This document shows positions 1 through 64,000 of a stretch of 64,000 nt of DNA, one piece after another (position 1 is the stretch's first letter; each line of letters opens with the position of its first letter). Position numbers and translations under genes: made by a program. The notes under the pieces were generated by a model that did no database searches, was not told where the DNA came from, and worked only from the letters and a program-made list of their open reading frames with translations. The DNA is taken from positions 96,879 to 160,878 of the forward strand of contig DAHXMV010000001.1 in the NCBI GenBank assembly GCA_027371535.1. Reading direction: 5' to 3'. Source of the DNA: Candidatus Amesbacteria bacterium. Its GTDB lineage: Bacteria > Patescibacteriota > Microgenomatia > CAZETR01 > Amesbacteraceae.

Positions 1-333
1 GAAATTATTCCCGCTGATACTGCCGACCCGCTGATTATTCCGGTATTTGTGAAGCAACTCCTGGGCAAAATAAAAGAAACTGGGGTCCGCCAAAACATCA
101 TCTTCAAGAATAATTCCCATTTTTTCATTGGTAAAAAACCAGTCCATGGCAGCAACAGGACCGAATTTACAGCCCAGATTCCGGTCCTGGAATTTCGTTT
201 TGACTACGCACTGCCAGTCTACCAAACCGATTATCCGCTGAACCTCTTTGACTAAGGTCTGTTCTTTATCGTTCCGGGGGCCGTCTACAGCAAAATACAA
301 TGCCCGGGGTTTAACTTTTTTAATACTTGCCAT
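1..333 (-). CDS. Partial CDS: N-terminal 111 aa of a glycosyltransferase-like protein (GT-A-type 'ILEDD' DxD-like motif). The C-terminus lies beyond the window edge.
   Basis: Manual translation of the minus strand from ATG (rc of 331-333) is open to position 1. It reads MASIKKVKPRALYFAVDGPRNDKEQTLVKEVQRIIGLVDWQCVVKTKFQDRNLGCKFGPVAAMDWFFTNEKMGIILEDDVLADPSFFYFAQELL... The plus-strand ORF 49-255 in the track overlaps it and is likely a shadow ORF. Confidence 0.5.
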   Translation of the reverse strand, partial: MASIKKVKPRALYFAVDGPRNDKEQTLVKEVQRIIGLVDWQCVVKTKFQDRNLGCKFGPVAAMDWFFTNEKMGIILEDDVLADPSFFYFAQELLHKYRNNQRVGSISGNNF

Positions 334-358
334 GACCCGGGCGGTGAGGTCAGGCCGG

Positions 359-1285
359 TTAAAACCAATTAATAATACCGGCGTATTTAGTTGTTTTGGC
401 ATAGTATTTCAAACTTAATATTCCGACTAAGATTATAACCGATAACATGACTTCATATACCCAGATCAGCCCTAACAAATAGACGGTGAGAAAATAACTA
501 AGATTATTAATATATGGGTGAATAACAAAAATTAGCATTGACTCTTTTCCGAACTGCTGAAATATTTTTAGCTTTTCAGGTAAATACCTAATAAAGCCAA
601 CAAGGGTGTTGATGACTAATAGGCTATATATAACTCCATATCCACTTATTACTTTTAATGCGATGTCTGTTTGCGGTATTGGAAGCAAAAACAAAGCTGC
701 AAGACAAAAAACTTTATATCTGCCCGCCAACAGCCAACCAAGAGATAGCCAGAACAAGCCCAGAAAAGCTTTATCAATTCCGAACGGCAATAACCAAGAA
801 CGGTTTGAAGCAAATAATAGAATTAATAAACTAACTAATGATATCAAGTATTTATTCCGGATAACTTTTAGCAAAATACGGTAAACAACTTTGGACCAAA
901 ACAGTGCAGGTAAAAACCATAAAACAAAACCATAATGGTGTAGATGGGAAAAATCCATCCACCAAAATATACCTATTATTTCCTGCCGGAAATTCAGTTT
1001 CCCGTTTATAAACAGGAAACCCGGAAACAACCGGTGTTTAAGGTATTCAAAAAACAAACCAATTAAAGAAAAGACTATAAAGGGGATAATCAGCCTGAAG
1101 AAATCCTTCTTTGTGGATTGTTTTAATGACGCTTCACTTTTCAGCAGCAAACCGGATACAAAGAAAAATAAGGGGATATGCCAGGCGTAGATAAAACCGG
1201 ATAACGGAGAAGCCATATGGCCAATGACAACCGCAATGATTGCCAGTCCTTTCAGGTTATCTATCCAAACGATTTTATTTTTCAT
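359..1285 (-). CDS. Acyltransferase family 3 (OatA/WecH-like) integral membrane O-acyltransferase
   Basis: 308 aa with about 10 predicted TM helices. The N-terminus 'IVWIDNLKGLAIIAVVIGHM...WHIPLFFFVSGLL' is typical of the Acyltransf_3 family. The region is low in GC. Confidence 0.65.
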   Translation of the reverse strand: MKNKIVWIDNLKGLAIIAVVIGHMASPLSGFIYAWHIPLFFFVSGLLLKSEASLKQSTKKDFFRLIIPFIVFSLIGLFFEYLKHRLFPGFLFINGKLNFRQEIIGIFWWMDFSHLHHYGFVLWFLPALFWSKVVYRILLKVIRNKYLISLVSLLILLFASNRSWLLPFGIDKAFLGLFWLSLGWLLAGRYKVFCLAALFLLPIPQTDIALKVISGYGVIYSLLVINTLVGFIRYLPEKLKIFQQFGKESMLIFVIHPYINNLSYFLTVYLLGLIWVYEVMLSVIILVGILSLKYYAKTTKYAGIINWF

Positions 1286-2037
1286 CCTATGAAGATTTTT
1301 CCGGTGAAATATTTCATCCTGGATAAGAAATCGATGATGTTTATCAGCATGGCCGGAGCTATATGGTTTTTCAGCCTTATCTTCTTGTATTCGTCATAAA
1401 TTTGTAATGTCTTATCTTTGCCGACCCCGCCTTCTCTCCATGCTGCGACAATTATGTCTTTTAAGACTACCGCCGGAAATATTTTATATGATCTCAGAAG
1501 TAAATCGTAATCCATGGCAAATTTACATTTAATATCAAATAAACCGTATTTATAAAAGTATCTTTTATTCATAAAAAGGGCTTGGTGCGGAAGGCCCATC
1601 TTGTATAAAAGTTGCCATTTATGAAAATTTATACCTGATGTATATAGGACCTGATCCCCTTTTTCAGCAATCCGGTTTATTCGGCCGCAGACTAAGATAT
1701 CTATTTCCGGATTAATACCCTGCATCATTTTTTGCAGTATATCTTTGCTCCAAAAGAAATCCCCTGCCCCCATAAAATACAAATAGTCCCCCTTAGCCGC
1801 TTTTACCCCTTTGTTAAACGCGTCGGAAATGCCTTTATCGGGTTCACTTACCCAGTAGTCTATGTATTTTTGATATTTCCTTATTATTTCTTTCGTATTA
1901 TCTTTTGATCCGCCGTCGATCACCAATAACTCTTTCTTTAGGTAATCCTGACTTATAAAACTAATAATTGTATTTTCTAGATCCGATCCATGATTAAGAC
2001 TGGGAGTTATAACAGATATAACAGGTTTATCTTTCAT
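1282..2037 (-). CDS. GT2 family glycosyltransferase (GT-A fold)
   Basis: 'ISVITPSLNHGSDLENTIISFISQDY...LLVIDGGSKDNT' followed by a DxD-like 'GAGD'. Start chosen at the internal Met (rc ATG at 2035-2037) to avoid a 41-nt overlap with the upstream gene. The ORF-track start at 2085 is an alternative. Confidence 0.75.
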   Translation of the reverse strand: MKDKPVISVITPSLNHGSDLENTIISFISQDYLKKELLVIDGGSKDNTKEIIRKYQKYIDYWVSEPDKGISDAFNKGVKAAKGDYLYFMGAGDFFWSKDILQKMMQGINPEIDILVCGRINRIAEKGDQVLYTSGINFHKWQLLYKMGLPHQALFMNKRYFYKYGLFDIKCKFAMDYDLLLRSYKIFPAVVLKDIIVAAWREGGVGKDKTLQIYDEYKKIRLKNHIAPAMLINIIDFLSRMKYFTGKIFIG

Positions 2038-2044
2038 AAATTCT

Positions 2045-3154
2045 TTAAGATTTATTATAATTACGAAGTACATCCCTATATACAATCGATGTTTGATATG
2101 CGGTTTTATCCCAAGAATATTTTTTTATTCTGATGTTACCTTTACTGACAAGGTCTTTACGAAGTTTGCTGTTTTCTATCACCTTCTGGATAGAATTTCG
2201 AATAGAGGTTTCATTTTCAGGCCTAAAATAGATAGCTGCGTCTCCCGCAATTTCAGGAAAACTACTATTATGGCTGATTACAACAGGGCATTTATTTTCA
2301 AATGCTTCCAATATCGGTATCCCGAACCCTTCATACCTTGATGGATACACAAAAGCCAAAGCTCTGCTATAACATTCCGACAAATCACGGTCATTAGTTA
2401 TAGATTGGTAAATCACTCTGTCGCTAATCCCCAGTTTGGAAAACATGTCAATTTCGTCAGAATTAAATATATTACCCCCCGCCGATACCAAATAAAGATT
2501 ATTCTTAATCAGAATATCAGATACCGCTTTAACAAAACCCATAAAATTTTTGTATATCCAGCGGAACCCAACATATAGCAGATATTTTTCAGGTAATCTT
2601 AATTTAACTTGTTTATCCCAGGGTAAAAGAGAATTGGCAAGAGGTATAACCGAAATGCTATTTCCATCTATCCCGTATATTTTCTGAATATCAGACTTGG
2701 TGCTATTAGAAATAGCAATAATATGGTCTGCTTTGGAAAGTATATATTTTTTGTTTTTTATAATTTTATTTTTAAGTGATGGGTACTCTTTTGAAAACAG
2801 TTCATGAATCATGTCATAGACTGTTATTATCAAAGGTTTTTTATGAGTTAGGGGTAAGAATATCTTTTCATAATAAGTTGGGTGATAAAGATCATAATCA
2901 ATAAAGTTCAGTTTAATTATGCCTAAAGCAGTATTTAATATTCTGTAAATATAGTTATGGTATTTATTACGGTAAATCCAGCTGTCAGTAATACCATAAC
3001 TTAAATCTTTAAGGTATTGGTTATGGCTTAATGTTAAATCGGATACAGGTAAAATATCGTATTTCGGTAATCTAGCCATTATCTCAGCGTAGTATCTTGA
3101 TATACCACCATAATCCTGTAAACTGAATATTTGTGAGTCAAATAGTACTTTCAT
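2045..3154 (-). CDS. GT4 family glycosyltransferase (GT-B fold, retaining)
   Basis: 369 aa. The C-terminal 'EGFGIPILEAFENKCPVVISHNSSFPEIAGDAAIYF' matches the E-x7-E signature region of the GT1/GT4 family. Confidence 0.8.
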   Translation of the reverse strand: MKVLFDSQIFSLQDYGGISRYYAEIMARLPKYDILPVSDLTLSHNQYLKDLSYGITDSWIYRNKYHNYIYRILNTALGIIKLNFIDYDLYHPTYYEKIFLPLTHKKPLIITVYDMIHELFSKEYPSLKNKIIKNKKYILSKADHIIAISNSTKSDIQKIYGIDGNSISVIPLANSLLPWDKQVKLRLPEKYLLYVGFRWIYKNFMGFVKAVSDILIKNNLYLVSAGGNIFNSDEIDMFSKLGISDRVIYQSITNDRDLSECYSRALAFVYPSRYEGFGIPILEAFENKCPVVISHNSSFPEIAGDAAIYFRPENETSIRNSIQKVIENSKLRKDLVSKGNIRIKKYSWDKTAYQTSIVYRDVLRNYNKS

Positions 3155-3933
3155 TTTTTCTGTGAATAACTTAGATGATCCGAAAAAGTTTTACTCTTAT
3201 AAAATATTGGTAATATTATGCTTAATACCATCCATAATTTGGAAAATATAATATTTATAGAAGAAGAGATATATATTTTAGAAAAAATATGATAAAAACT
3301 GCCGTTTGTTGTTAAGTGGTATCCAAGCTTGTCGGCGATAATTTGCAGGCTTTTTCTGGTATAAAACGATATATGCTGGCCACCTTCCGGTACAAAATAC
3401 CACCAGTCCTTCCCCGGATCGCCGTCATGAAGCGTTGTACTAAATATCAGCATATCTGGACTGTATATATTCAAAATATCACCAATTTCTTTTAGGGGAT
3501 TGTCTAAATGTTCAAACAACTCAAAACTGCATACCACATCGTAATGTTTTTCTTTTGACTCAAATCCTCTTACAAATATATTTTTGGCATACCTGTCCTG
3601 CCAATAACAATCAAGACCTATGTCTCTTAATAATCTCGTCATAACCCCATAGCCTCCAGCATAATCAAGAACCTGGGAATCCTTTTTACCAGTTAGTAAT
3701 AATAAGATTGCCGTCATCTTAGATAAGGTGATATTCCTGGACAGTAATCCCGTATCAGCTGATATTATCGCCTGCTTATATGCTTTTTTTAACCAATATC
3801 TGGGTTTTTGAGCCTCTATAAAGCTACAATTTGTACATCTATAATAATTTATGTTATATATTTTCAAGACTGTTTGAGTTACATATTCTTCCACCAGATT
3901 TCCACATACTGAGCATTTCATGACTATATTCAT
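3151..3933 (-). CDS. Class I SAM-dependent methyltransferase with an N-terminal Cys4 zinc-ribbon
   Basis: CSVCGN...CTNCSF zinc ribbon. Methyltransferase motif I-like 'VLDYAGGYGVMTRLL' and an acidic residue after beta2 'LDCYWQD'. Confidence 0.6.
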   Translation of the reverse strand: MNIVMKCSVCGNLVEEYVTQTVLKIYNINYYRCTNCSFIEAQKPRYWLKKAYKQAIISADTGLLSRNITLSKMTAILLLLTGKKDSQVLDYAGGYGVMTRLLRDIGLDCYWQDRYAKNIFVRGFESKEKHYDVVCSFELFEHLDNPLKEIGDILNIYSPDMLIFSTTLHDGDPGKDWWYFVPEGGQHISFYTRKSLQIIADKLGYHLTTNGSFYHIFSKIYISSSINIIFSKLWMVLSIILPIFYKSKTFSDHLSYSQKK

Positions 3934-4057: not shown

Positions 4058-5359
4058 CTATGTATTATTGACTAATTCGTACTTTTTGATAACAAAGTAT
4101 TGGATTAAATAGTCAAATAAATTTGATATAAATACCATCATAAAAAAATAATATAAACCTGTATTTCTAAAGAACACCATATAATTTATATATAAAACTA
4201 GCGTCAAAAGGGGTTTATATAAGTACATTTTAACTACTTTTTGATATATTCTTGCTGAAGATAAAGCAATTTGTCCGTATAAACTAGCTACCAGTTGAAT
4301 ACATGAAATTATGGATACTAGAAATATATACCAGTAATTTATGGCATAAGACTTACCCACTAAAAACATGATAAAGAAAGTGATAAGAAATACACCGATA
4401 AAAAGAGGCGATAGTGATAATAGTATAATTTTATCGATTTTCTTTTTTGTTGAAATATAATCCCGATATTCAGTTAGATTTGGCAGTAAAACATTATTTA
4501 CGGCCACCAATACCTGAGAGATTACTGTTGTTGAAGCTATCAGATATACACTATAGATGCCCAGTAAACGAAAACCAAGATATTTTGCCATGAAGATCCT
4601 ATCCATATTAGAAATCAGCACACCTATAATTATAGCTAAATAGCAATTTATAGAATATCGAAGGCTTTTTTTGAATAAAGGCATATTCCATCGACCCAAA
4701 TATGGATATATGAATTTTAAAAAAATAATTGACATCGAGAAATAAATAATAATCGAGCCATAAATATAATATTGGTATTGATGTAAACTACAAAATACTA
4801 TTCCAGCTACCAATATAAAGATGCCTACACCCTCTATTAGCTTGGAAAGAGACTGAACTTTGAAATTTCCGAAAGCTTTAATTACAGATTCAAATAGATA
4901 TTTAAATGCCAACACCGATGAATAGACAAGGGAGTAGAAAATTATTTGGAATATATTACCGAAGTGACTTTTGATATAACCTGAAATTGATAAAAATATC
5001 ACCCATACTAATAGAGTAAAACCTGTAATCAAATATACAGAGTTTGAGATTTCCGCTTTACGGAAATTTTTGTCATGGTTCCCTGGAACATATTTTATAA
5101 CTACAGAATCACGGCTTAGCAATAAGACCATACTCAAAATCCCAGAAATAGAAATAAATAAACTATATTTACCAAATTGTTCAGGACCTAGCTGCCGGCC
5201 CAATAATATATATGAAATAAACAGTAAGATTGAGCTGATTCCGATACCTATGAATGACCATGTAATGTTATTAATAAACGAAGTAAATCTGTTTCCGGGA
5301 GTATGGCCATATATAAATATATAAGCCGAGTCTATTTTCCTTTTCAGATAAGAATACAT
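4058..5359 (-). CDS. Wzx-like oligosaccharide flippase / polysaccharide biosynthesis protein (MOP superfamily)
   Basis: 433 aa with about 12 TM segments throughout. Architecture and neighbourhood fit O-unit flippases. Low-GC island. Confidence 0.6.
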   Translation of the reverse strand: MYSYLKRKIDSAYIFIYGHTPGNRFTSFINNITWSFIGIGISSILLFISYILLGRQLGPEQFGKYSLFISISGILSMVLLLSRDSVVIKYVPGNHDKNFRKAEISNSVYLITGFTLLVWVIFLSISGYIKSHFGNIFQIIFYSLVYSSVLAFKYLFESVIKAFGNFKVQSLSKLIEGVGIFILVAGIVFCSLHQYQYYIYGSIIIYFSMSIIFLKFIYPYLGRWNMPLFKKSLRYSINCYLAIIIGVLISNMDRIFMAKYLGFRLLGIYSVYLIASTTVISQVLVAVNNVLLPNLTEYRDYISTKKKIDKIILLSLSPLFIGVFLITFFIMFLVGKSYAINYWYIFLVSIISCIQLVASLYGQIALSSARIYQKVVKMYLYKPLLTLVLYINYMVFFRNTGLYYFFMMVFISNLFDYLIQYFVIKKYELVNNT

Positions 5360-5381
5360 TTCAACAAACTTCTAAGAAAAA

Positions 5382-5726: not shown

Positions 5727-6370
5727 AGACTGTTGGCCAATATTTTAACACTATCGGCAGGGGAAATACCCTTGTATTTATTGATATAAATGGTGTCAAT
5801 GGGAATTTCGACCCACTTCAGTTTATGCTGATGGCGGCTGAAGCGGGCGATCATTTCAGTTTCGACTCCGTAACGGTCAGACTGCCATTTAGATAAAAGA
5901 TAAGCCTTTCTGGTTAAAGCCCTGTAGCCGGATAAGATGTCCCTGATCCGCACCCCGAAGACCAAACGGCAATAAATTCTTGCCAGGAAATTCCCCAGAT
6001 GCCGGTCATGCGGATCGCCGGCAGAATAAGTCCGGGAACCGAAAACCAGATCGGTTCCCTGCTGCAGATGTTTTATAAAAACCGGTATTTCCTTGGGATC
6101 ATGCTGCAAATCAGCATCCATGTAGATCACCGCATCCGCACCCGAGGCAAAGGCATAATCAGCCCCCGTCTTCATGGCCGCCCCCTTACCCAAATTCAGC
6201 TGGTGACGTAACAGGGTGACCGGATATCGGCGGGGAATTTCCAGCGGAGCTTCGGAGCCGTCATCCACGATCACCACCCGGGATAAAGGGAAGACGGAAC
6301 GCAGTTTGGACAGCAACATCGGCAGCCGCGGTTGTTCGTTAAAAGCCGGAATAACAATAAATATTTTCAT
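5708..6370 (-). CDS. GT2 polyprenyl-phosphate sugar synthase (Dpm1/GtrB/ArnC-like)
   Basis: 'FIVIPAFNEQPRL...VVIVDDGSEAP', 'NLGKGAAMKTG', 'DADLQHDP', 'DILSGYRAL'. This motif order is characteristic of dolichyl/undecaprenyl-phosphate glycosyltransferases. Confidence 0.75.
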   Translation of the reverse strand: MKIFIVIPAFNEQPRLPMLLSKLRSVFPLSRVVIVDDGSEAPLEIPRRYPVTLLRHQLNLGKGAAMKTGADYAFASGADAVIYMDADLQHDPKEIPVFIKHLQQGTDLVFGSRTYSAGDPHDRHLGNFLARIYCRLVFGVRIRDILSGYRALTRKAYLLSKWQSDRYGVETEMIARFSRHQHKLKWVEIPIDTIYINKYKGISPADSVKILANSLWWKLF

Positions 6371-7641
6371 TTGTCGGATAATTTAACCGCTGCTAAACGC
6401 CGGTAAACAACAACCGCGGAAAGGGTCAGGAGCAATTGACCGGCTAAATTGGAAAGGGCAGAGCCGATTATCCCCAATGGGGGTATCAGAAGCAAACCGG
6501 AGACGATGGTAACCACGCCGGAGCCCAGGCTGGCCCAGAAAAAGAATTTGGGGCGGTTGTAAAAATAGAGCAAACTATCCCTGACAGGAGCGCCCAACAT
6601 GAATACCAACATGGAAACCAGCACAATTAAATACGGAACCAGGCCGGAAGTATACTGCCGGCCGGAGATCAGAAATAAGACATAACCCCCCGGAATCATG
6701 ACCCCTGCGGCCAGCAGCGCGATGCCCCCGGAAAGCAGGGTAGCTTTTAAGACATAGCGGCGGTTATGGGAGTGGTCGCTGAAACTGGCAAATTTGGGTG
6801 CCGTCACAGCGCCAATGGCATTCATCACCTGGGGCAGATAACTGACTGCCTGAATACCCAAGCCATAGACTCCGACTGCAGAAAGGCTGGCCAGACCGGA
6901 GGTCAGATAAGTATCCAGCCGGGAACTCACCGATGAGGCAACGGTAAAAGCAGTCACCCATTTGTTGAAGTGGAAGATATCGGACAATCTGGATAACGAC
7001 CCTGAAACAGTAAAAACCTCCCTTTCCACTTTAAAGAGACCGAGGATAAAACCAAAGAGGGGTATTACGGCCCACAGGGCGGTAGATATATAAGCATTCA
7101 ACCAGCCAATCCGCCAAAAGAAGATGAGGAAAATGAAACGGGCGATATTGGTCCCGGCCAGGACACTTCCCCACCAAAAAAATTTTTCATAAGCCTGCAT
7201 GTAGTAAAGGGCGAAATTAAAAAGCTGCTGACAAAGCAGGCCGATACCGATGAGGGGTATAAGAGGGGTCATTTCGGGTTGATGAAAGAGGACTACTGAC
7301 AACCAGTGAGCTGAAAAAATACAGAAGAAGGTTATCACAAAACCAACCGTAACTTTAATTTTTAGGGCCAAATTGGAAACCTGCAGCCTGGCGGTACGGT
7401 CATTTCGGTAATGGGAAATAAATTTAATCATGCCCCGGTCCGTGCCGAGCTCCAAAATGGTCGACAAAATAACAATCGTAGTCGTAGCCAAAGTAAACAG
7501 TCCATATTCGCTGCTGCCGATGTTCCTGGCCAGAAGCAGGTAAAATGTCACGGCGAAAACTCCGCTGATGACGGTGGCAACCAGAGTCACGGCCGTCTGC
7601 CTGATAGTATGGGTGTGGATTAGATGGCTGATACGGATCAT
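6367..7641 (-). CDS. MOP-superfamily flippase / polysaccharide biosynthesis membrane protein
   Basis: 424 aa and about 12-14 TM. 4-nt overlaps with both neighbours. Confidence 0.55.
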   Translation of the reverse strand: MIRISHLIHTHTIRQTAVTLVATVISGVFAVTFYLLLARNIGSSEYGLFTLATTTIVILSTILELGTDRGMIKFISHYRNDRTARLQVSNLALKIKVTVGFVITFFCIFSAHWLSVVLFHQPEMTPLIPLIGIGLLCQQLFNFALYYMQAYEKFFWWGSVLAGTNIARFIFLIFFWRIGWLNAYISTALWAVIPLFGFILGLFKVEREVFTVSGSLSRLSDIFHFNKWVTAFTVASSVSSRLDTYLTSGLASLSAVGVYGLGIQAVSYLPQVMNAIGAVTAPKFASFSDHSHNRRYVLKATLLSGGIALLAAGVMIPGGYVLFLISGRQYTSGLVPYLIVLVSMLVFMLGAPVRDSLLYFYNRPKFFFWASLGSGVVTIVSGLLLIPPLGIIGSALSNLAGQLLLTLSAVVVYRRLAAVKLSDK

Positions 7642-28878: not shown

Positions 28879-29135
28879 GGGATTTATTTTCTCATAAAAT
28901 GCCAAAACTGTATAATTTACCCGCCTGATCAGGAAAACTGTTCCCGATGTTTCCATAATAGTGCCGGTTTACAATGAGGAATTTCCGATAGATGAATTCG
29001 TCCGGCAGGTGACCGAATACCACATTTTATTTTTAATTGTGCAGTGCAAAAGTACCTGCTTAGCCACAGCGGGGTGGAAATCAGTCAAAATGATTATATT
29101 AATAATCGGTGCCCGTGTTAAAAAAATCTTCCCGA

Positions 29136-49854: not shown

Positions 49855-49892
49855 TCCAAAATTATATCTTCAATGGGTGGTAAACTGAAGAT

Positions 49893-57628: not shown

Positions 57629-59085
57629 GAGCCGGTGGGGTTATGAACTAAACGGTAAACCACGACCCCCCAGGGAAATTCCCATTGTTTATCGATCCTG
57701 GCCCAGCCGAAAGCCGCGATTTCCCACAGAGGATTACCTACCGGATGACACGGGGTCTCTTCGCAGATGACAAACAGCTGATCGGTCAGTTTTTCATGGA
57801 TGGTAACATTAGAACTATTCAAAAGGGCCAATTCATAGCGATAACCGGCGTCATAGTTATTTTTCGAGAGCAGGGCCAGATTGAAGGGAATTCCGGCAGT
57901 CTGATCGGTGATGAAGTAGGCAATTTTTTGGGTATGGACAAGTTGGGAATTTGGAGCAAATTTTAAAGGATTATGCTGAAGGTTAACCAGCGCCAATAAT
58001 ATAAACAGAACAACCGATACGGCTTGTGCAGCCAGGCGGCGGCTGAAGGACTGCAGCCAAAAACCCAAAAGCAGAAACGGAACCGGGAAAAGAAATCCGT
58101 AATAGTGGATATAAATATGCTGTTTATACAGGCCCAAACCCAGCAAGCCGAAGCCCAACCAGGTCAGGGTAAAGATAAATTGGGAGGAGATTTGCCTTTT
58201 TATCAATCTGATCAGCGTAAAGAAAACCAGTAACAATGACAACAACCAACCCAGGAAATAATTTTGAGCGGTTAACAAACCCGAGACAAGGTCATTCCAG
58301 ATCGGCCAGAGGTTGGGCATGGCTTTGTAAATCCTGAGGTTGACCGTATTACCCCGGTTGGTTAAAAAAGTGACCAGGGCATGGAAATTTGTCCATCCAT
58401 GGCGCATATCAAATATCACCAGCGGGGACATTAACAAAATAAAAATCAGCACGGATGCAAGAAGTAAGGGATAGGATTTATGAAGCTGTTTGGATAAAAA
58501 CAAAAAAATAACCACGGTCGGAAACAGCAGCAAGCCAAGATAGTGGGAATTCAAAACAAATGCCAGACAGACACCAATTACGGGTAACCACCGGGGGTCG
58601 TGCCGGCGCCAAAAAAGCCAGGTACCATACATAGCCAGCAAGGCAAAAAAAGGCATGATATTGGGATTCCAGGATGAACGGGAATAAGTTATGACTACCG
58701 GAGAGATGGCATACAAAAATGAAATACCCAAACCGATTTTCGGACCAAACCACGATCTGGCTATCCACCACAACAGGGCGACAGTCAATATGCCGATGAC
58801 CGCGACTTCACCGGCCAGACCCACCGGAGAAAAACCTGCCAGCCAAAGCGACGGAGCCACCAGATAATAATAGAGCGGACCCAAATACATGCTGCCTACC
58901 GAAGTCCCCGGACCGATTAAAGGAAAATGCTTCCCCAGGACAATATCCCTGACAGCCAGCGCATCACGGCCTTCATCACCCAAAAAGGTCATGTATTCAG
59001 AAATTCTATATAATCTGAAGACAGACCCCGCCACCAGAATCAGGGTGAGGAAGAGAATTTCAATTTTGGTGATTTTTAGAGTCAT
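57625..59085 (-). CDS. ArnT/GT83-like GT-C glycosyltransferase (family D paralog)
   Basis: 'FLGDEGRDALAVRDIVLGKHFPLIGPGTSVGSMYLGPLYYYLVAPS'. Start at 'MTLKITK' (rc ATG at 59083-59085) gives a 4-nt overlap with the upstream gene. The alternative start at 59100 would overlap by 19 nt. Confidence 0.6.
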   Translation of the reverse strand: MTLKITKIEILFLTLILVAGSVFRLYRISEYMTFLGDEGRDALAVRDIVLGKHFPLIGPGTSVGSMYLGPLYYYLVAPSLWLAGFSPVGLAGEVAVIGILTVALLWWIARSWFGPKIGLGISFLYAISPVVITYSRSSWNPNIMPFFALLAMYGTWLFWRRHDPRWLPVIGVCLAFVLNSHYLGLLLFPTVVIFLFLSKQLHKSYPLLLASVLIFILLMSPLVIFDMRHGWTNFHALVTFLTNRGNTVNLRIYKAMPNLWPIWNDLVSGLLTAQNYFLGWLLSLLLVFFTLIRLIKRQISSQFIFTLTWLGFGLLGLGLYKQHIYIHYYGFLFPVPFLLLGFWLQSFSRRLAAQAVSVVLFILLALVNLQHNPLKFAPNSQLVHTQKIAYFITDQTAGIPFNLALLSKNNYDAGYRYELALLNSSNVTIHEKLTDQLFVICEETPCHPVGNPLWEIAAFGWARIDKQWEFPWGVVVYRLVHNPTGS

Positions 59086-59792
59086 CGAAGCTGGTACCAC
59101 AATTTCAACAGATCACGGATACTTCTGATAATGACCTTTAAATCGGCACCGGTATTATGGCCGAACCGGCGGGGGTAATGATGAACCCTAACCTGGGCAA
59201 ATTTAAATCCCATACGCTGGGCTTTGGTTAACATTTCAATCTGAGTCACTTTCTCCTCGCCGATTAAGGGTTGGACGCCGGTATACACTTTTTTATTGAT
59301 CAATTTATATCCGCAGGAATAATCAGTCACTTTCAAACCCAGGAGGATTCTGGGTAACAGTTTGGACCAGACAAACGTATAAAACTTGCGGATAAAGGCA
59401 TCTGCCCTGCCGATGCGGATACCCAGTACCAAATCCGCACCGGTCAGCTTTTGAGCTTCAATAAATAATTTAATTTCCGAAAAATCAAACTGGCCATCCG
59501 AATCCATAAAGGCCACCCACTGAAAACGGGACGTCTCATAGCCGCTTTTTAAAGCACCGCCGTAACCGCGATTCGGATGATGATGGACGACCCGGACATG
59601 TTTGTTTTTAGCCGCCATCGTGTCGGAAATTCCGCCTGTCCGATCACTTGACCCGTCATCCACAATAATTACCTCCCATTTACCGGCAACCCCGGGGAGG
59701 ACAGCGAGGACCCCATTGACTGTTTTTTCGATATTTTTTTCCTCATTGTAAGCCGGCAGAAACACTGATAACTCGTCAATAAGCTTTGTCAT
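59082..59792 (-). CDS. GT2 polyprenyl-phosphate sugar synthase (GtrB/ArnC/Ppm1-like)
   Basis: 'LSVFLPAYNEEKNIEKTV...VIIVDDGSSDRT', 'NRGYGGALKSG', 'DSDGQFD', 'DYSCGYKLI'. Confidence 0.8.
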   Translation of the reverse strand: MTKLIDELSVFLPAYNEEKNIEKTVNGVLAVLPGVAGKWEVIIVDDGSSDRTGGISDTMAAKNKHVRVVHHHPNRGYGGALKSGYETSRFQWVAFMDSDGQFDFSEIKLFIEAQKLTGADLVLGIRIGRADAFIRKFYTFVWSKLLPRILLGLKVTDYSCGYKLINKKVYTGVQPLIGEEKVTQIEMLTKAQRMGFKFAQVRVHHYPRRFGHNTGADLKVIIRSIRDLLKLWYQLR

Positions 59793-59828: not shown

Positions 59829-61535
59829 TTGGAATATAATCAGAAGGTGGTAAAAAAGAATTTACTGGTGCTGGGGGTAATGATAATCCTGACATTTCCG
59901 GCATGGAAAGCACTCAGGCATATGGGAATGATTTCCGGGCATGATACCCAGGCGGCGGTTTTCAAAGGGGAAGAGTTTTTTAATGCTATAAAAGACGGCA
60001 GTTTTCCGCCCAGATGGTCAAAAAGGCTGGATTTTGGATTAGGGCAGCCAACTTTTACTTTTACCTATTCCATGCCCTATTACCTGATGTCTGCAATTAT
60101 GTTTTTAAACAGCGGACCCATATGGGCATTTAAGATTGTCATGGCTGCCAGTTTTCCTTGCGGTGCATTCTTTACCTTTCTGTGGCTGAAAAAACATTTC
60201 GGTGGCTTACCGGCTTTTTTAGCCAGCCTGCTTTATGCCTATTTACCATATCATTTTGCCAATGTCTATGTCCGGGGCGACATCGGAGAAACCGTAGCTG
60301 CTGCCTGGTTACCGCTGGCTTTCTGGGGATTGGACAGGGTAATCGACTCCCCAACCCCGGCTAAAACGGCGGTGGCTGCCCTAACCGTGGCAGCGGTAAT
60401 AATCAGTCATCCGTTTTACGGTTTGGTTTTCGGGGCGATCTGGACCGGTTATATATTATTGAGAAGCCGGAAGAATATCCAAGCATTGAAAATGGCAATG
60501 ACTGCTCTGATATGGGGATATGTCTGTTGTGCCTTTTATATAATTCCGTCGCTGGTTTATAAAAATATGACTTTTTTAAGCAGGCTGGAAAGTTATTTTA
60601 TTGAAAAGCAATATTTTGTGACTTTGGACAGAATTTTTTATTCGCCGTGGGGCTTTGACGGGGCTAATGAGTTGGACAGGCGGCCGATGTCGGTCCAGGC
60701 GGGATTGGTCGCATGGGGCTTTTTTACCGGCTGGTTAGGAATTGCATTATTATCAAAGAAAGTCAGAAAAGACAGACATTTTTATGAAGGACTTTATTTT
60801 TCCATGCTGACTGTTGCGGCTGTTTTTTTGATGCTTTCTATAAGCCTGCCGGTGTGGAAATTATTATCCCCCATGGAAAACCTACAGTTTCCCTGGAGAC
60901 TGTTATTTGTAGTCAATATCGGAATGACATATCTGGCCGGATTTGTGTTGAGATATCTGGCCGGGATTTTAAAACAAAATAAAATCAAATTACTCGTCTT
61001 TACCGGATTAGCGGGGCTGATAATTATTGCCAGCAGAAGTTACTGGAGTGTAGGCCGGTATTTTCCGTATGTTGATCTGACCCGCGAGGCCATCGGTTAT
61101 CCGGGGACTTTGACAATGCTTTTGGAGGAAACCCCGGTCTGGCATAGCCGGAATCAGGAAGCTAACCCGCATAATTTCATCCAAAATGCCGAAGGCCGGG
61201 CAATATTACTGACAATGCTGGTTTGGAAAACCAATTATCACAAGTTTCTGGTGGTGACGGATAAACCGATTGCAGTTAACGATAAGACTCATTTCTGGCC
61301 GGGCTGGAAAGTATGGGTGGACGGAGTGGCTTCTCCGACTTTGGATCCGTTTGCTAAAATCAGCCAGGGATTAATTACCTTCAGGGTTGGTCCGGGGACA
61401 CATATAGTAGAGACCAGACTGACGGAAACCGGGGTAGAACAAACTTCGGATTCCATAAGTCTGATCAGTATTTTCGGAGCAGTCGCCATCAGTCTCCCGG
61501 GAGTGCTAAGATTGAAAAGGCATGACACAGTTTAG
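59829..61535 (+). CDS. YfhO-like polytopic membrane protein (family B GT-C candidate)
   Basis: 568 aa. 'MISGHDTQAAVFKGEEFFNAIKDGSFPPRWSKRLDFGLGQPTFTFTYSMPYY'. Confidence 0.45.
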   Translation: MEYNQKVVKKNLLVLGVMIILTFPAWKALRHMGMISGHDTQAAVFKGEEFFNAIKDGSFPPRWSKRLDFGLGQPTFTFTYSMPYYLMSAIMFLNSGPIWAFKIVMAASFPCGAFFTFLWLKKHFGGLPAFLASLLYAYLPYHFANVYVRGDIGETVAAAWLPLAFWGLDRVIDSPTPAKTAVAALTVAAVIISHPFYGLVFGAIWTGYILLRSRKNIQALKMAMTALIWGYVCCAFYIIPSLVYKNMTFLSRLESYFIEKQYFVTLDRIFYSPWGFDGANELDRRPMSVQAGLVAWGFFTGWLGIALLSKKVRKDRHFYEGLYFSMLTVAAVFLMLSISLPVWKLLSPMENLQFPWRLLFVVNIGMTYLAGFVLRYLAGILKQNKIKLLVFTGLAGLIIIASRSYWSVGRYFPYVDLTREAIGYPGTLTMLLEETPVWHSRNQEANPHNFIQNAEGRAILLTMLVWKTNYHKFLVVTDKPIAVNDKTHFWPGWKVWVDGVASPTLDPFAKISQGLITFRVGPGTHIVETRLTETGVEQTSDSISLISIFGAVAISLPGVLRLKRHDTV

Positions 61536-62601
61536 ACCGGGGTTAAAAACTTTATTAGGGGTAGCCATTTTAAGTACGCTGGCGATATGGGTGGTCTTGG
61601 GGATGCCAAAAATTTATCAGAACTACGACGGGCCTTTTTATCTGGTGGTAGCCAAAGCCTGGTACAACAAAGACTTAATAAGGCACAGTTTTTCTTTTGC
61701 CCTGCCGCTGGAATATTACCCGGCGCATTTTCCCCTTTATCCAATGCTTATTGACCTGTTTGCGCTGGCTTTTTTAAATCATCTGCAGGCCATGGTGGCA
61801 GTCAATTTAATTATCTCAGCTGCCGGGGCGGCGGTAATATACAAAACGGCAGAAAAAATGAGATGGGAGAGCCCTTTCTGGACGGGTTTGGCCTGGTTAT
61901 TCTGGTGGCCCAGGATGTGGGCCGTACGCAGTGTCGGCAGTCCGGAATCGTTATTTGTTACAGCCATCGTCTTATCCTTATACTTTTTCGGCAAAAGAAA
62001 ATACTGGTTAGCGGGTTTGGCGGGGTCTGCAGCGATGCTGACTAAAAGTCCGGGGATATTGCTGCTGGCGGCTTTTGGCATGTGGCTCGTGGTAAATTAC
62101 ATTAAAACAAAAAAATGGGATAAAGATATTTGGCCGGTGGCACTAATCGGGCTGACGGCACTGGGCCTATTTTATTTTTTCTATCTGAAAACCGGTGACT
62201 TCATGGCATATTTTCACACCGGTGACAACATTCATCTGCAGATTCTGCCGTTTCGGGTTTTTGACAGCAGCCAGTTATGGGTAGGTAGTTTCTGGCTGGA
62301 AGATATCATTTGGATATACCTGATTGCCGGGATCGGAGTATACAGGGCCTTGAAAAAGAACCTGGTGTGGGGAGGGTTTGGGCTGATATTTTACCTGACG
62401 TTACTCTTTGTATCCCATAGGGATATCAGCCGGTATAGCCTGCCGCTGGTACCCGTGGTGCTTTTGGGATTTTCCGATTTGTTAGCCAGAAAGGAAGTAA
62501 AATGGGCTTTGGCATTAGCCATTATCCCCTTGTTTTTCTACACCCTAAACTTTGTGAATAACAATACGCTGACAATTGCCAACTGGGCCCCGTTTCTTTA
62601 A
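61522..62601 (+). CDS. PIG-V/GT76-like integral membrane mannosyltransferase candidate (second copy)
   Basis: 359 aa. 'YDGPFYLVVAKAWYN...YYPAHFPLYPMLIDLFA' parallels the 'DGVHFILIATHGY...AFFPLYP' motif of the protein at 9206-10339. Confidence 0.4.
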   Translation: MTQFRPGLKTLLGVAILSTLAIWVVLGMPKIYQNYDGPFYLVVAKAWYNKDLIRHSFSFALPLEYYPAHFPLYPMLIDLFALAFLNHLQAMVAVNLIISAAGAAVIYKTAEKMRWESPFWTGLAWLFWWPRMWAVRSVGSPESLFVTAIVLSLYFFGKRKYWLAGLAGSAAMLTKSPGILLLAAFGMWLVVNYIKTKKWDKDIWPVALIGLTALGLFYFFYLKTGDFMAYFHTGDNIHLQILPFRVFDSSQLWVGSFWLEDIIWIYLIAGIGVYRALKKNLVWGGFGLIFYLTLLFVSHRDISRYSLPLVPVVLLGFSDLLARKEVKWALALAIIPLFFYTLNFVNNNTLTIANWAPFL

Positions 62602-62609
62602 TCTTTCAA

Positions 62610-63767
62610 CTACGCCCGGGGTTTTTTCTGCCAGATAAATTTGTTGTAGATAAACCAGTTATAAGGGACGGTAAAACCGAAAACAGCCAAAACCAGAAAT
62701 AGCGTCCGGTACCGGTCCCCGAAAACCTGAGTCCCCAAACCGATAATCAAAGAAGGAACTAATATTCCGCCTAATACCGAGGAGAAATTAAACGCCAGGA
62801 ATTTGGAAATTAATTGGGAAACCCTGGAAATTTTGTCCTGGGAGAAAGTCCAGAGGTTGTTGAAAATAAAATTGGAGATAATGGAAATTTCAGCCGCAGT
62901 TGCATTAGCTAAAAAATTAATCACACCAATGGGAAACGGTAAACCGGAATACGTCTTATTAAAATATATCAAACCCAGGTAATTGATGACAAATCCAAAA
63001 CCGCCGACCACCCCGAATTTGAAAAATTTAATCGTCGCGGGGTTGTGCAGTTGAATTAGAAAAATAACCCTAATGGTTTCCTGCATCTCGTTTTTGATAA
63101 TTTTGGATTTACCTTCAGTGCGGGGGGAAAAGTGAAAAGGCAGTTCTTTAACCCGGGCCCCTTTCTGAACCATGTAATGCAGGAGCTGGACTTTGTAGGC
63201 AAAACTTTTAGAATACAGAGCGGAAAAATCAAACTGATCCATAAATCCCTTTACACGGGAGAGTTTAAAACCCCCGGTTACGTCATGCACCCCAAGGGTC
63301 AGCAAACCTACACGGCCAACCAGATTGCCGACTACGCTTAAAAATTTCCGGTCAAAGCTCCAGGCGCCGGGAATGGATCCTCCCGGGATATACCGGGAGG
63401 CAATAATATAGTCAAAACCACGGTCTATCTGTTCTATCATCCGGGGAATATCCCGGGGAGGATGCTGGAAATCAGCGTCGAATTCCATTAACCAATCAGC
63501 GTGCATTTTTTTCATGGCATAAGTCATTCCCCGGGCATAGGCCACACCCAAACCCTGCTTTTGACTGCCGCCCAACAAGTGCAGCCAGGGGTATAAACGC
63601 ATGGCTTTTTCCACTTCCAGGGCTGTGCCGTCGGGGCTGGAATCATCCACATATAGGACTTCAACATCATGTTTGGGAATCAGGGGGATTATTTCTGCCA
63701 GGGTACTGATCATTTCCCGGGTGTTTTTCCGTTCATTATATGTGGGGATGATAATAACAATTTTCAC
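62610..63767 (-). CDS. Fusion protein: Dpm1-like GT2 polyprenyl-phosphate sugar synthase with a C-terminal GtrA-like 4-TM domain
   Basis: N-terminus 'IVIIIPTYNERKNT...VLYVDDSSPDGT', 'FDADFQHPP', 'DVTGGFK'. C-terminus 'KFFKFGVVGGFGFVINYLGLIYF...ANATAAEISIISNFIFNNLWTF' (GtrA-family signature). Confidence 0.75.
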   Translation of the reverse strand: MKIVIIIPTYNERKNTREMISTLAEIIPLIPKHDVEVLYVDDSSPDGTALEVEKAMRLYPWLHLLGGSQKQGLGVAYARGMTYAMKKMHADWLMEFDADFQHPPRDIPRMIEQIDRGFDYIIASRYIPGGSIPGAWSFDRKFLSVVGNLVGRVGLLTLGVHDVTGGFKLSRVKGFMDQFDFSALYSKSFAYKVQLLHYMVQKGARVKELPFHFSPRTEGKSKIIKNEMQETIRVIFLIQLHNPATIKFFKFGVVGGFGFVINYLGLIYFNKTYSGLPFPIGVINFLANATAAEISIISNFIFNNLWTFSQDKISRVSQLISKFLAFNFSSVLGGILVPSLIIGLGTQVFGDRYRTLFLVLAVFGFTVPYNWFIYNKFIWQKKPRA

Positions 63768-63805
63768 AGGAATTAATTCTAAGGCATTTTAGGTATAATT
63801 AATAC

Positions 63806-64000
63806 ATGAGGATAGACATACTGACGCTGTTTCCGGAAATGTTTACCGGACCATTCGATTATTCAATTGTTAAAAGAGCCCAGATCAAAGGGGCGGCGGA
63901 TATAAAAATACACAATTTAAGAAATTGGGCTACCGATAGTTATAAATCAGTAGACGATCATCCGTTCGGCGGAGGTGCCGGTATGATAATGAGAGTGGAT
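63806..64000 (+). CDS. trmD: tRNA (guanine37-N1)-methyltransferase TrmD, N-terminal fragment running off the window
   Basis: Manual translation from ATG 63806: [65 protein letters not shown]. This matches the conserved TrmD N-terminus 'LTLFPEMF...H.LR.....H..VDD.P.GGG.GM'. It is absent from the ORF track because there is no stop within the window. Confidence 0.85.

Follow-up and report, generated by a model that had tools for sequence, protein, structure and literature searches.

Twenty-four GT-C-type membrane enzymes are encoded, together with helper genes, in 64 kb of DNA from Candidatus Amesbacteria (Microgenomates, CPR), an organism with a small genome, and the cluster they form most likely operates as an assembly line that builds a complex glycan of the cell surface in two phases. 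The window, by which the whole analysed stretch of 64 kb is meant, makes up most of a gene cluster that extends over at least 74 kb, and the dTDP-rhamnose genes rmlABCD lie immediately past its right end. Open reading frames of 359–764 aa are present at all 24 start coordinates listed in the initial annotation, and a Kyte–Doolittle scan predicts 5–11 transmembrane segments in each, which confirms that all 24 are polytopic. The same genes were recovered by an independent gene caller run on the source contig, and these proteins recur on three contigs, each assembled independently. The GT-C genes occupy 35.9 kb (56%) of the window, and with 12 GT2, three GT4 and three Wzx genes they cover 83% of it, in agreement with the earlier view that it is given almost wholly to glycosylation.

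The 24 membrane proteins, named here by their start coordinates, are of the GT-C type, as established by Pfam, BLAST links, profile–profile comparison (hhalign) or predicted fold. Pfam GT-C matches above the curated cut-off were obtained for about 11–13 of the 24 (12183, 13799, 18637, 54675, 56141, 57625, 52416, 20812, 16979, 50782, 59829, 9206 and 30633). Three proteins match only below the cut-off (22031, 43864 and 61522), and eight lack a Pfam GT-C match of their own (15420, 23311, 40876, 32932, 42467, 34412, 39289 and 45149). The paralog families proposed initially were reproduced by all-against-all BLASTP: A (12183, 13799, 15420, 18637, 23311 and 40876, with 25–34% identity), B (32932, 42467, 54675, 56141 and 57625), C (20812, 22031, 34412 and 43864), D (16979, 50782 and 59829) and E (9206 and 61522). 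Families A and B do separate by this criterion; the labels GT39 and GT83 that they had been given are not distinguishable on these data. The families are linked to one another by hhalign, with probabilities of 98.5% for A–B, 97% for D–B, 83% for E–B and 88% for 39289–A. In 23 of the 24 proteins, an acidic residue is conserved in the first extracytoplasmic loop (loop 1): D38 in families B and D and in 52416, D32-E33 in A, D36 in C, D57 in E and D33 in 45149. Structure comparison was carried out for family A and 45149, and a GT-C fold is predicted for both.

Coordinates below are on the minus strand unless a plus sign is given. Family A comprises 12183..13802 (539 aa; Pfam PMT above cut-off), 13799..15418 (PMT_2, 40.7 bits; 34% identity to 12183; reciprocal-best ortholog in a relative at 51%), 15420..17006 (no match in the Pfam search; BLASTP to 12183 with 2e-61; ortholog 47%), 18637..20247 (PMT_2, 29.2 bits; ortholog 43%), 23311..24924 (7e-60; ortholog 52%) and 40876..42480 (+; 1e-54). 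The DE motif is kept in 15420, 23311 and 40876. The last of these sits in an inverted block that is absent from the relative, where no reciprocal-best ortholog of it was found. A divergent family-A-like protein, 39289..40860 (+), aligns with family A over 433 columns. Its loop-1 Asp is replaced, with QE where family A has DE, and its orthologs in loci L004 and L005 carry N/T-E at this position.

Family B, marked by the motif DQGRDA, includes 32932..34434 (BLASTP to 56141 with 4e-22; D38 invariant), 42482..43855 (+; ORF start 42467; 1e-14 to 57625), 54675..56144 (PMT_2, 29.9 bits), 56141..57628 (PMT_2, 52.3 bits, and PMT, 27.3 bits; ortholog 41%) and 57625..59085 (PMT_2, 50.3 bits). The single-copy ArnT/PMT-like 52416..53918 (PMT, 44.2 bits, and PMT_2, 40.4 bits; ortholog 59%) belongs to the conserved core, and its position is kept in most of 80 loci from related genomes. 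Family C is GT87/PIG-M-like and consists of 20812..22047 (GT87, 44.5 bits; PIG-M, 23.6 bits), 22031..23314 (ALG6_ALG8, 17.8 bits against a cut-off of 25; 1e-21 to 43864), the core member 34412..35614 (1e-38 to 20812; ortholog 48%, itself with a weak GT87 match) and 43864..45225 (+; GT87, 22.5 bits, below the cut-off of 25). Family D had been described as a YfhO-like trio; its members match PTPS_related/PMT_2 and not YfhO. They are 16979..18613 (PMT_2, 31.0 bits; PTPS_related, 25.9 bits), the core member 50782..52419 upstream of Wzx (PTPS_related, 33.0 bits; ortholog 52%) and 59922..61535 (+; ORF start 59829; PTPS_related, 45.6 bits). The PIG-V-like family E is formed by 9206..10339 (Mannosyl_trans2, 30.7 bits against a cut-off of 22.4) and 61522..62601 (+; 29% identity to 9206; PMT_2, 21.6 bits, below the cut-off of 26.1). 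Three large membrane proteins had been left unassigned; they can now be described as family-A-like (39289), OST-like (45149) and YfhO-type (30633). The latter, 30633..32849 (738 aa; YfhO, 59.1 bits), shows a weak C-terminal match to NCBIfam PgfM1/PgfM2, and in most of the 80 loci its ortholog comes behind the GT4 gene.

The protein 45149..46810 (553 aa) represents an unnamed family without a Pfam model that is encoded in 264 species genomes. Its gene lies always immediately behind Wzx, and in one protein from the family search (P0281), Wzx and the 45149 domain are on one chain. Its predicted fold is closest to that of the oligosaccharyltransferases STT3, AglB and PglB, their C-terminal domain included. 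It differs from these enzymes in that their WWDYG motif is absent, and Pfam STT3 is not matched; a segment Y457-[E/D]-S-T-A-Y is conserved. We tentatively regard 45149 as the best candidate for moving a flipped lipid-linked glycan to its final acceptor, which may be a protein or else an anchor in the wall or membrane.

The accessory genes agree in number with the initial count of four candidate polyprenyl-phosphate sugar synthases, three MOP/Wzx flippases, eight other GT2 and three GT4 enzymes. The core flippase is 46821..48281 (Polysacc_synt_3, 154.9 bits; ortholog 73%). The second, 4058..5359 (Polysacc_synt, 65.3 bits), lies in a cassette of low GC content and has a GC of 28%, and the third is 6367..7641 (Polysacc_synt, 63.8 bits). 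The four small GT2 proteins considered as candidate synthases cluster together in all-against-all BLASTP, and their best NCBIfam matches are the polyprenyl-phosphate glycosyl synthases PpgS, AglJ, ArnC and PgfS, with scores far under the curated cut-offs. Thus, 59082..59792 (Pfam GT2, 105 bits), at the head of a B-B-B operon, matches ArnC best, over its full length and below the cut-off; 53921..54673 (Pfam GT2), upstream of 52416 and conserved in position among the 80 loci, matches PgfS and ArnC weakly; and 5708..6370 matches PpgS (full length) and AglJ, both below their cut-offs, with a DUF2304 membrane protein behind it at 5382–5726 (66.8 bits). The fourth, 62610..63713, combines a GT2 with a GtrA/DPMS transmembrane domain in one protein (Glycos_transf_2, 86.3 bits; GtrA_DPMS_TM, 45.1 bits). 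Both 59082 and 53921 lead runs of GT-C genes in which stop and start codons overlap. In a relative, 59082 and 57625 correspond to a single 715-aa GT2-PMT_2 protein (L085:334-2481), whose C-terminal part is 54% identical to 57625.

The remaining glycosyltransferases are grouped in several blocks. The core cytoplasmic block at 35611..39224 contains three GT2 and one GT4 (Pfam; orthologs 42–59%), including 37390, which weakly matches a rhamnosyltransferase family (NCBIfam), and almost every one of the 80 loci has this GT2-GT2-GT2-GT4 arrangement downstream of its 45149 ortholog. Two further GT2 genes (28060..30670; Pfam) are accompanied by a SAM methyltransferase (30017–30670), which is conserved in 37 of the 80 loci. 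A GT4 and a GT2 follow the family A array (10336..12178; Pfam; orthologs 47% and 64%), and a conserved GT2 at 24944..25819 (+; Pfam; ortholog 43%) has the opposite orientation in the relative as well. At the left end, a variable cassette with a GC of 32–38% (359..3933; Pfam) encodes an acyltransferase_3, a GT2, a GT4 and a methyltransferase, and the relative has no ortholog of any of them. No initiating phosphoglycosyltransferase of the WecA/MraY or WbaP type was detected in the window or within 10 kb on either side, nor was there any sign of a Wzy polymerase, an LCP ligase or an evident conserved acceptor protein.

The comparison between genomes that the initial annotation had suggested revealed a collinear core, B-B-(B)-GT2-52416-D-Wzx-45149-GT2-GT2-GT2-GT4-(YfhO)-B-GT2-GT2-A, in 80 species genomes of Amesbacteria, Woesebacteria, Blackburnbacteria and Shapirobacteria, obtained in many studies. 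Each of these genomes holds 4–11 GT-C genes in a stretch of ~21 kb around the 45149 ortholog, arranged alike, and the density is not a peculiarity of the window. In the relative, a 38-kb version of the cluster with 12 GT-C genes contains collinear reciprocal-best orthologs of 27 window genes, with identities of 41–73%, which exceed the 25–38% between paralogs. For 21 full-length GT-C paralogs (family A and 45149), comparison with a relative gave one-to-one orthologs; five of the six family A paralogs have reciprocal-best orthologs, in unchanged order. The core is fixed and old, and the surrounding blocks differ between species (the inverted block 39289–45225, the pair at 20223–23314, the YfhO/B block and the low-GC cassette). 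For the core, this does not bear out the combinatorial diversification proposed earlier. Since the core paralogs are old and their orthologs one-to-one and collinear, the pattern agrees with an assembly line of several fixed steps, surrounded by add-on blocks that vary.

In the first phase of the proposed assembly line, cytoplasmic GT2 and GT4 enzymes, with the conserved block at 35611–39224 as their central set, would assemble an oligosaccharide on a polyprenyl carrier, and the core flippase 46821 would then carry the product across the membrane. In the second phase, for which family membership, gene order and one gene fusion are the basis, 5708, 53921, 59082 and 62610 would charge polyprenyl phosphate with single sugars. 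Once flipped, these lipid-phosphate sugars would be donors to some 23 GT-C enzymes, which belong to seven or more families and would each add one defined residue or branch on the membrane's outer face. A transfer step to an acceptor by the OST-like 45149 may follow. With four synthases for 24 GT-C enzymes, many of the latter have to draw on common donors or on donors supplied from elsewhere.

The membrane proteins might instead be transporters or permeases, or their density an artefact of a chimeric or collapsed contig. The eight members without their own Pfam match could be taken to favour this, but all eight are tied to GT-C-matching members by BLAST or hhalign, or by predicted fold, the same proteins occur on independently assembled contigs, and the gene order is repeated in 80 genomes. 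This reading, to which we assign practically no probability, is refuted, and the initial assignment of the proteins to GT-C holds. An unlikely, though considerably more plausible, alternative is that the cluster consists of independent three-component modules that combine a GtrB-like synthase with a flippase and a GT-C enzyme and add one side-chain sugar each to a polymer made elsewhere. Gtr of Shigella and Salmonella, CsbB/GtcA/YfhO and GacI/J/L are known examples of such systems. The polymer might, for example, be teichoic-acid-like, a rhamnose polymer or an S-layer glycan, and the large number of GT-C enzymes would vary the surface, for example in phage evasion or host recognition. This idea stands near the combinatorial diversification mentioned above. 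It is favoured by the GT2 synthase genes directly upstream of GT-C genes and the fused pair, by the variation in GT-C copy number and block make-up (4–11 per 21 kb; 12 in 38 kb versus 24 in 64 kb), by the several blocks without an ortholog in the relative and by the left-end cassette, which looks acquired. However, the core paralogs are kept one-to-one in unchanged order, only four synthases accompany the 24 GT-C enzymes, and no long simple-sequence repeats of the phase-variation kind were found, the longest G/C runs being 7–8 nt. Moreover, a Wzx and a conserved block of cytoplasmic glycosyltransferases belong to the cluster itself, whose role thus goes beyond decorating a glycan from another source.

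It is improbable that the cluster serves mainly in protein O-glycosylation, with PMT/PMT_2- and YfhO/PgfM-like enzymes directly glycosylating or mannosylating various Ser/Thr-rich surface proteins such as pilins, S-layer proteins or sortase substrates, in parallel to actinobacterial Pmt and the Pgf system of Streptococcus mutans. The Pfam PMT/PMT_2 matches, the PMT-type DE motif kept in loop 1 of family A and the weak PgfM1/PgfM2 match of 30633 would agree with this. According to PMC6744442, pili are reported for CPR cells and sortases are near-ubiquitous in Microgenomates. The cluster also encodes a membrane-anchored protein, 25816, with ends rich in Ser/Thr/Pro/Ala, but no other surface protein of the cluster is Ser/Thr/Pro-rich, and this one is not conserved in relatives. 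To our knowledge, protein-O-mannosylating bacteria get by with one Pmt. The PMT_4TMC and MIR domains were not detected by Pfam, and because PMT_2 also spans ArnT-like enzymes that act on lipids, a match to it does not indicate protein acceptors. Families C and E, furthermore, resemble glycan-extending enzymes (GT87, PIG-M, PIG-V and ALG6) and not protein modifiers.

A full-text literature search found no paper describing such a GT-C cluster arrangement, in agreement with the initial supposition that it had not been characterised as a system. The baseline of 0–3 GT-C enzymes per bacterial genome, with which the cluster had been compared, overlooks the Mycobacteriales. These bacteria are likewise rich in GT-C enzymes, with well over ten, but theirs are dispersed across a genome about four times larger. 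In the Microgenomates, the dense GT-C cluster is the norm for a whole lineage and not a one-off of one window.

In the window, 52 ORFs of at least 150 aa tile the sequence nearly without gaps. They lie predominantly on the minus strand, and their stop and start codons often overlap. The same DNA forms positions 30561–94560 of a 153-kb ENA metagenome contig (ERZ27233560, k141_910440), on which independent gene calls concur with the window ORFs, with only a few starts shortened. All 24 start coordinates at which the initial annotation had placed polytopic GT-C glycosyltransferases (GT-Cs) are true ORFs of 359–764 aa, with 5–11 hydrophobic segments apiece, as counted by a crude hydropathy scan. 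These genes, named here by their start coordinates, make up 56% of the window, and together with 12 GT2, 3 GT4, and 3 Wzx genes they account for 83%. No noteworthy tRNAs, Rfam elements, or simple repeats that would signal phase variation were found in the window.

The proposed paralog groups were reproduced exactly by all-against-all BLASTP: family A has six members (mutual identity of 25–34%), B has five, C has four, D has three, and E has two. Families A and B and the single gene 52416 match Pfam PMT and PMT_2; C matches GT87, PIG-M, and ALG6_ALG8; D matches PTPS_related and PMT_2; E matches PIG-V; and 30633 matches YfhO. We take all of these to be families of the Pfam GT-C clan. The curated Pfam cut-off is passed by 11 of the 24 proteins, and three more match below it; those without a Pfam match were joined to families by BLAST or profile–profile comparison. 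The profile–profile links are A–B at 98.5%, D–B at 97%, E–B at 83%, and 39289–A at 88% over 433 columns. The hhalign links of 45149 with A, 45149 with C, A with D, and C with E were not significant, and C, and 45149 especially, are tied to the GT-C superfamily solely through Pfam or fold. A few residues past the first helix, in the first extracytoplasmic loop (loop 1), each family has an invariant acidic residue (DE in A, D[QE]GRDA in most of B), except in the 39289 subfamily, where Q/N/T-E stands at this place. In the AF2 models of 12183 (family A) and 45149, 11–13 membrane helices are seen. The superfamily was recognized by a polytopic topology with at least eight helices, a conserved acidic motif (D, DxD, or DE) in loop 1, and a GT-C-clan Pfam match or GT-C fold, and the window membrane proteins agree with all three, apart from 39289 in the loop-1 motif. 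Pfam, BLAST or profile links, and predicted folds show that they are not transporters, an identity that the initial annotation had named among those that would overturn its proposal. The profiles of A, B, and 45149 found nothing meaningful among all PDB sequences; for this reason, the nearest solved family was assigned from predicted folds, for which two structures were predicted. For the eight GT-Cs that lack a Pfam match, NCBIfam offered no name that could be used. Its only matches, Agl23 for 15420 and 23311, were set aside as too weak, with scores of 24.5 and 16.6 bits where the cut-off is 126. Agl23 is an archaeal "flippase activity-associated protein", and some PMT_2-like proteins may aid the flipping of lipid-linked sugars instead of transfer.

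The finer labels fared less evenly. The groups called GT39 and GT83 stand as sequence families, but the two labels are not separable on these data; neither an ArnT-specific nor a PMT_4TMC signal was found. The Pfam PMT score of 12183 (23.6) barely exceeds the cut-off (22.7), and 52416 alone matches clearly (44.2); the PMT-type DE motif is present in loop 1 of family A. Pfam PMT_4TMC was found in none of the 24 GT-Cs. Family models for ArnT (GT83) gave no match, B and 52416 matching PMT_2 or PMT alone; NCBIfam gave no match for 52416, 32932, and 42467; and in the predicted fold, ArnT is one of several structural neighbours at about equal score. In family C, Pfam PF09594 (GT87) is matched by 20812 (44.5 against a cut-off of 25) and, below the cut-off, by 43864 (22.5), while 22031 and 34412 are linked through BLAST alone. 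The trio 16979, 50782, and 59829, previously called YfhO-like, matches PTPS_related and PMT_2 and does not reach the PF09586 cut-off. The YfhO-type protein is 30633 (59.1 against 28.5), which had been given no family and whose C-terminus is weakly like the protein-glycosylation enzymes PgfM1/PgfM2 in NCBIfam. Likewise left without a family, 39289 is by its sequence an offshoot of family A. Its subfamily of family-A-like GT-Cs comprises 39289–40860 (+) in the window and, in related genomes, L004:17771–19306 and L005:6772–8364. The Asp of the loop-1 DE is replaced (QE in the window, NE and TE in the orthologs), and the TGRDE segment after the motif is missing; because of the replaced Asp, the subfamily may be catalytically altered, mechanistically different, or non-catalytic.

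The independent gene calls place 45149 at 45149–46810 (553 aa). It has no match in Pfam, NCBIfam, or PDB sequences, and among 42 homologs of its family, four match PMT_2 weakly and none matches Pfam STT3 (PF02516). Its AF2 model (pLDDT 86.2, pTM 0.88) has a GT-C fold, for which Foldseek ranked six STT3 chains at the top (E ~1e-7), with AglB and PglB close behind. When compared with the oligosaccharyltransferases (OSTs) of GT66, the predicted model has the overall fold and the C-terminal globular domain, and this domain resembles that of AglB-S2. The C-terminal domain has no WWDYG motif, the closest conserved stretch being L-Y-[LY]-Y-[E/D]-S-T-A-Y (454–462), and the family profile has no detectable similarity to any solved OST in the PDB. 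The conserved residues are G-F-W-G-x-N-G-H-D33-G-x-W-H, N-Y-H...D67, G-E143-S-x-F-W, W-F-L-[E/D]262-T, D269-R270, and Y457-[E/D]-S-T-A-Y. Since WWDYG is missing, 45149 is kept out of GT66, and its modelled architecture is described as OST-like. The family comprises about 1,600 clusters at 50% identity among 1.84 billion representatives. In related loci, the 45149 ortholog always follows Wzx, and one family member, P0281 (1,639 aa), begins with a Wzx domain and thus carries Wzx and 45149 domains on a single chain. For a putative diphosphate-linked oligosaccharide donor and protein acceptor of 45149, the support is this gene context together with P0281. Many members are 1,000–1,160 aa long (e.g., P0191, P0246, P0259, and P0261) and have an added N-terminal membrane-anchored, apparently extracytoplasmic domain of about 450–590 aa that had no Pfam match in our scan; another group has ~100 additional N-terminal residues with three more helices.

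Three window proteins (4058, 6367, and 46821) are Wzx/MOP flippases, matching Pfam Polysacc_synt or Polysacc_synt_3 at 64–155 bits with 8–13 predicted segments, where the class is defined by such a match together with 10–14 helices. Four small GT2 proteins (5708, 53921, 59082, and 62610) group together in all-against-all BLASTP and are candidate polyprenyl-phosphate sugar synthases (GtrB/DPM1/ArnC/PpgS type), a class defined by a GT2 catalytic domain most similar to known synthases and an adjoining GT-C gene. Their Pfam GT2 matches are clear, and their best NCBIfam matches are PpgS, AglJ, ArnC, and PgfS at 53–76 bits against cut-offs of 325–529; Pfam also finds a GtrA/DPMS membrane domain in 62610. 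There are thus four candidate synthases for 24 GT-Cs. In a related genome, the orthologs of 59082 (GT2) and 57625 (family B) form a single 715-aa GT2–PMT_2 fusion (L085:334–2481). By the gene-fusion argument, 59082 would feed 57625, the adjoining family-B transferase. No WecA/WbaP-type initiating phosphoglycosyltransferase was found by family models among the scanned ORFs, and no polymerase, ligase, or conserved acceptor was found for the cluster.

The closest homologs of 12183 and 45149 are found in Candidatus Amesbacteria and other Microgenomates MAGs. A 45149 profile run over one genome per GTDB species matched 264 genomes, and the best 80 of these belong to Amesbacteria, Woesebacteria, Blackburnbacteria, Shapirobacteria, and other Microgenomates. 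When these 80 loci were searched with HMMs made from the window families, a recurring order was found, B-B-(B)-GT2-[52416-like]-D-Wzx-45149-GT2-GT2-GT2-GT4-(YfhO)-B-GT2-GT2-A, with 4–11 GT-C genes per ~21 kb. Many loci (L005, L011, L015, L016, L018, and others) come from TPA metagenome bins titled "uncultured Gammaproteobacteria"; these bins are evidently mislabelled, because they carry the Microgenomates-type cluster at 45–52% identity. In GCA_900218215.1, two overlapping loci together give a 38-kb collinear version of the cluster with about 12 GT-Cs. Reciprocal-best orthologs of 27 window genes are present there in the same order at 41–73% identity. Of the six family-A paralogs, five have such an ortholog, as does the D gene that lies among them. 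Paralogs within the window share only 25–38% identity, which is less than the orthologs share, so the duplications are older than the species split and every copy has been kept.

In comparison with this relative, the window contains several extra blocks: an inverted block at 39289–45225 with A-offshoot (39289), A, B, and C genes; two C genes at 20223–23314; a methyltransferase, YfhO, and B at 30017–34434, which is found in many other Microgenomates; a B gene at 54675; a D gene at 59922–61535; the left end at 359–8915; and an insertion at 48356–50810. The insertion lies between a D gene and Wzx and consists of three genes: one for a D-2-hydroxyacid dehydrogenase and two for membrane proteins, one of 185 aa with five helices and the other of 305 aa with seven helices and a coiled coil at its C-terminus. 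Both membrane proteins lack a family match, and none of the three genes is present in related loci. A low-GC island at 1000–5400 (28–39% GC against ~45% elsewhere in the window) carries one gene each for GT2, GT4, methyltransferase, and Wzx flippase, all without orthologs in the 38-kb cluster, and has the look of a variable cassette that was acquired or is serotype-like. The SAM-dependent methyltransferase at 30017–30670 (−), beside the YfhO and B genes, is conserved in 37 of the 80 loci, and for this reason methylated sugars probably belong to the product.

The cluster ends on the right at ~63.7 kb and is followed directly by trmD and then by a complete rmlA–D set for dTDP-rhamnose (L003:12285–16095, from window position 63806 onward). 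This adjoining set suggests that rhamnose is one of the sugars used; NCBIfam gives 37390 a weak match to a rhamnosyltransferase family. On the left, the cluster runs at least 10 kb past the window (L002:10884–20927). This stretch adds three GT2 and two GT4 genes; also encoded are a protein of 698 aa with 13 predicted helices, which matches no family, and a six-helix protein of 376 aa, and a further family-A-like GT-C begins there. Inside the cluster, 25816–26958 (−) encodes a protein of 380 aa that has a membrane anchor at its N-terminus, is rich in Ser/Thr/Pro/Ala at its ends, and weakly matches Ig-like domains. It could be a glycosylation substrate, but it is mentioned here as a remark alone, because it is absent from the neighbourhoods of the 80 relatives and was rejected as the acceptor glycoprotein.

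With family memberships, folds, motifs, synteny, and fusions as the observations, we favour a two-phase glycan assembly line, in which a glycan would be started in the cytoplasm, flipped by Wzx, and then extended outside by the GT-Cs with polyprenyl-phosphate sugars; its donors, step order, acceptor, and product are those that we infer. The conserved Wzx-45149-GT2x3-GT4 unit resembles a flippase-dependent lipid-linked oligosaccharide pathway. Weak points of this favoured reading are that neither an initiating phosphoglycosyltransferase nor a polymerase, ligase, or conserved acceptor was found, and that 24 GT-Cs face only four candidate synthases. The varying copy number and the blocks that look acquired speak for independent Gtr-like decoration modules that vary the surface, but the core is conserved 1:1 and phase-variation repeats are absent, and such modules seem to us rather unlikely. 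It is distinctly improbable that the cluster serves PMT-like enzymes that directly O-glycosylate many proteins. Non-GT proteins or an assembly artefact have practically no chance of being the explanation, as they are refuted by the fold results and by the recurrence of the cluster across independent assemblies.

A bolder reading, to which we give a small probability, is that Microgenomates possess a eukaryote-like two-compartment lipid-linked oligosaccharide pathway with 45149 as a novel bacterial OST lineage. Cytoplasmic GT2 and GT4 enzymes would start the glycan, Wzx (of the MOP superfamily, as is RFT1) would turn it outward, ALG-, PIG-, and PMT-like GT-Cs would extend it with polyprenyl-phosphate sugars, and 45149 would transfer it en bloc onto surface proteins. 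If this were true, 45149 would be a third type of bacterial protein-glycosylation OST, and an ultra-small symbiont would hold, in one operon-like cluster, the closest prokaryotic analogue of ER N-glycosylation.

For the favoured assembly line, the closest working analogies are mycobacterial LAM/arabinogalactan synthesis and the ER lipid-linked oligosaccharide pathway. Mycobacterial and corynebacterial LM/LAM and arabinogalactan assembly (PimE, MptA/B/C and other GT87 enzymes, EmbA/B/C, AftA–D, and Ppm1 for polyprenyl-phosphate mannose) likewise uses GT-C paralogs of several families for extension and branching on the outer face with polyprenyl-phosphate sugars after a cytoplasmic GT4/GT2 start. 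Window family C matches Pfam GT87, and AftA, AftB, AftD, PimE, and EmbA are among the structural matches of the window models. However, there is no sequence-level orthology, the A, B, and 45149 profiles matching no PDB sequence, and the Amesbacteria core includes a Wzx flippase and an OST-like enzyme. While the mycobacterial genes are scattered in a genome of about 4.4 Mb, those of Amesbacteria are packed in one 64–74 kb cluster of a genome that we assume to be roughly 1 Mb.

In three-component systems, namely GtrA/GtrB/GtrX (O-antigen), CsbB/GtcA/YfhO and GtlA/GtlB (teichoic acids), GacI/GacJ/GacL, PgfS/PgfM1/PgfM2, and ArnC/ArnE-F/ArnT, a small GT2 makes a polyprenyl-phosphate sugar that is used outside the membrane by the GT-C of an adjoining gene, and the window proteins would play similar roles. 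The best matches of the window GT2s (PpgS, AglJ, ArnC, and PgfS), the YfhO-type 30633, and the GtrA/DPMS domain of 62610 agree with this. In contrast, each module of these systems comes with a single GT-C, and a genome has one to three such modules, against 24 GT-Cs and four candidate synthases in the window; all NCBIfam matches of the window proteins lie under the curated cut-offs, so no window protein belongs to a named equivalog family. As in N-glycosylation with an OST (eukaryotic ALG, RFT1, DPM1/ALG5, and STT3; archaeal Agl with AglB, AglD, AglS, and AglR; bacterial Pgl with PglB), one cluster holds cytoplasmic GT2/GT4 enzymes, a MOP-family flippase, candidate DPM1-like synthases, and GT-Cs resembling ALG12, ALG6, PIG-M, and PIG-V, and the predicted fold of 45149 is nearest to STT3, AglB, and PglB, with an AglB-S2-like C-terminal domain. 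Unlike those OSTs, 45149 is without WWDYG, a Pfam STT3 match, or sequence similarity to solved OSTs. The bacterial N-OSTs reported so far are those of Campylobacterota, Desulfobacterota, and a small number of other groups, with none known from CPR; no paper linking OSTs with CPR was found among the full-text papers searched.

Taken singly, the parts of the cluster belong to known kinds. Its novelty, so far as could be established, lies in the scale and packing (24 GT-Cs from seven or more families within 64 kb of a very small genome), in a core cluster conserved across Microgenomates, and in an unnamed OST-like GT-C family coupled to Wzx. The full-text papers searched on CPR glycosylation contained no description of the cluster, but most subscription-journal papers lie outside this coverage, so this absence is no proof. 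A large part of bacterial diversity falls to the CPR/Patescibacteria, which have genomes of ~1 Mb and for which a life in attachment to other cells is assumed; their surface chemistry is scarcely known. The cluster genes already appear in public MAGs, where they carry the annotations "hypothetical protein" or "glycosyltransferase family 39 protein". A survey of CPR protein families noted that most of the families enriched in Microgenomates are hypothetical and that many are located in the membrane, and glycosyltransferases go unmentioned there (PMC6744442). The present analysis assigns likely functions to membrane proteins that are now "hypothetical". The 45149 family, with its OST-like architecture, its coupling to Wzx, and no Pfam model, gives biochemistry, and perhaps also glyco-engineering, a concrete target, and the paralog array conserved 1:1 is a natural experiment on the diversification of GT-C specificity. 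A single glycan-building cluster takes up at least 64–74 kb, or ~6–7% of a genome assumed to be ~1 Mb. Its core is conserved in at least 80 Microgenomates species and probably in more than 260. As it is conserved so widely, a complex surface glycoconjugate is probably central to Microgenomates biology; it may act, for instance, in attachment to a host, in protection, or in defence against phages.
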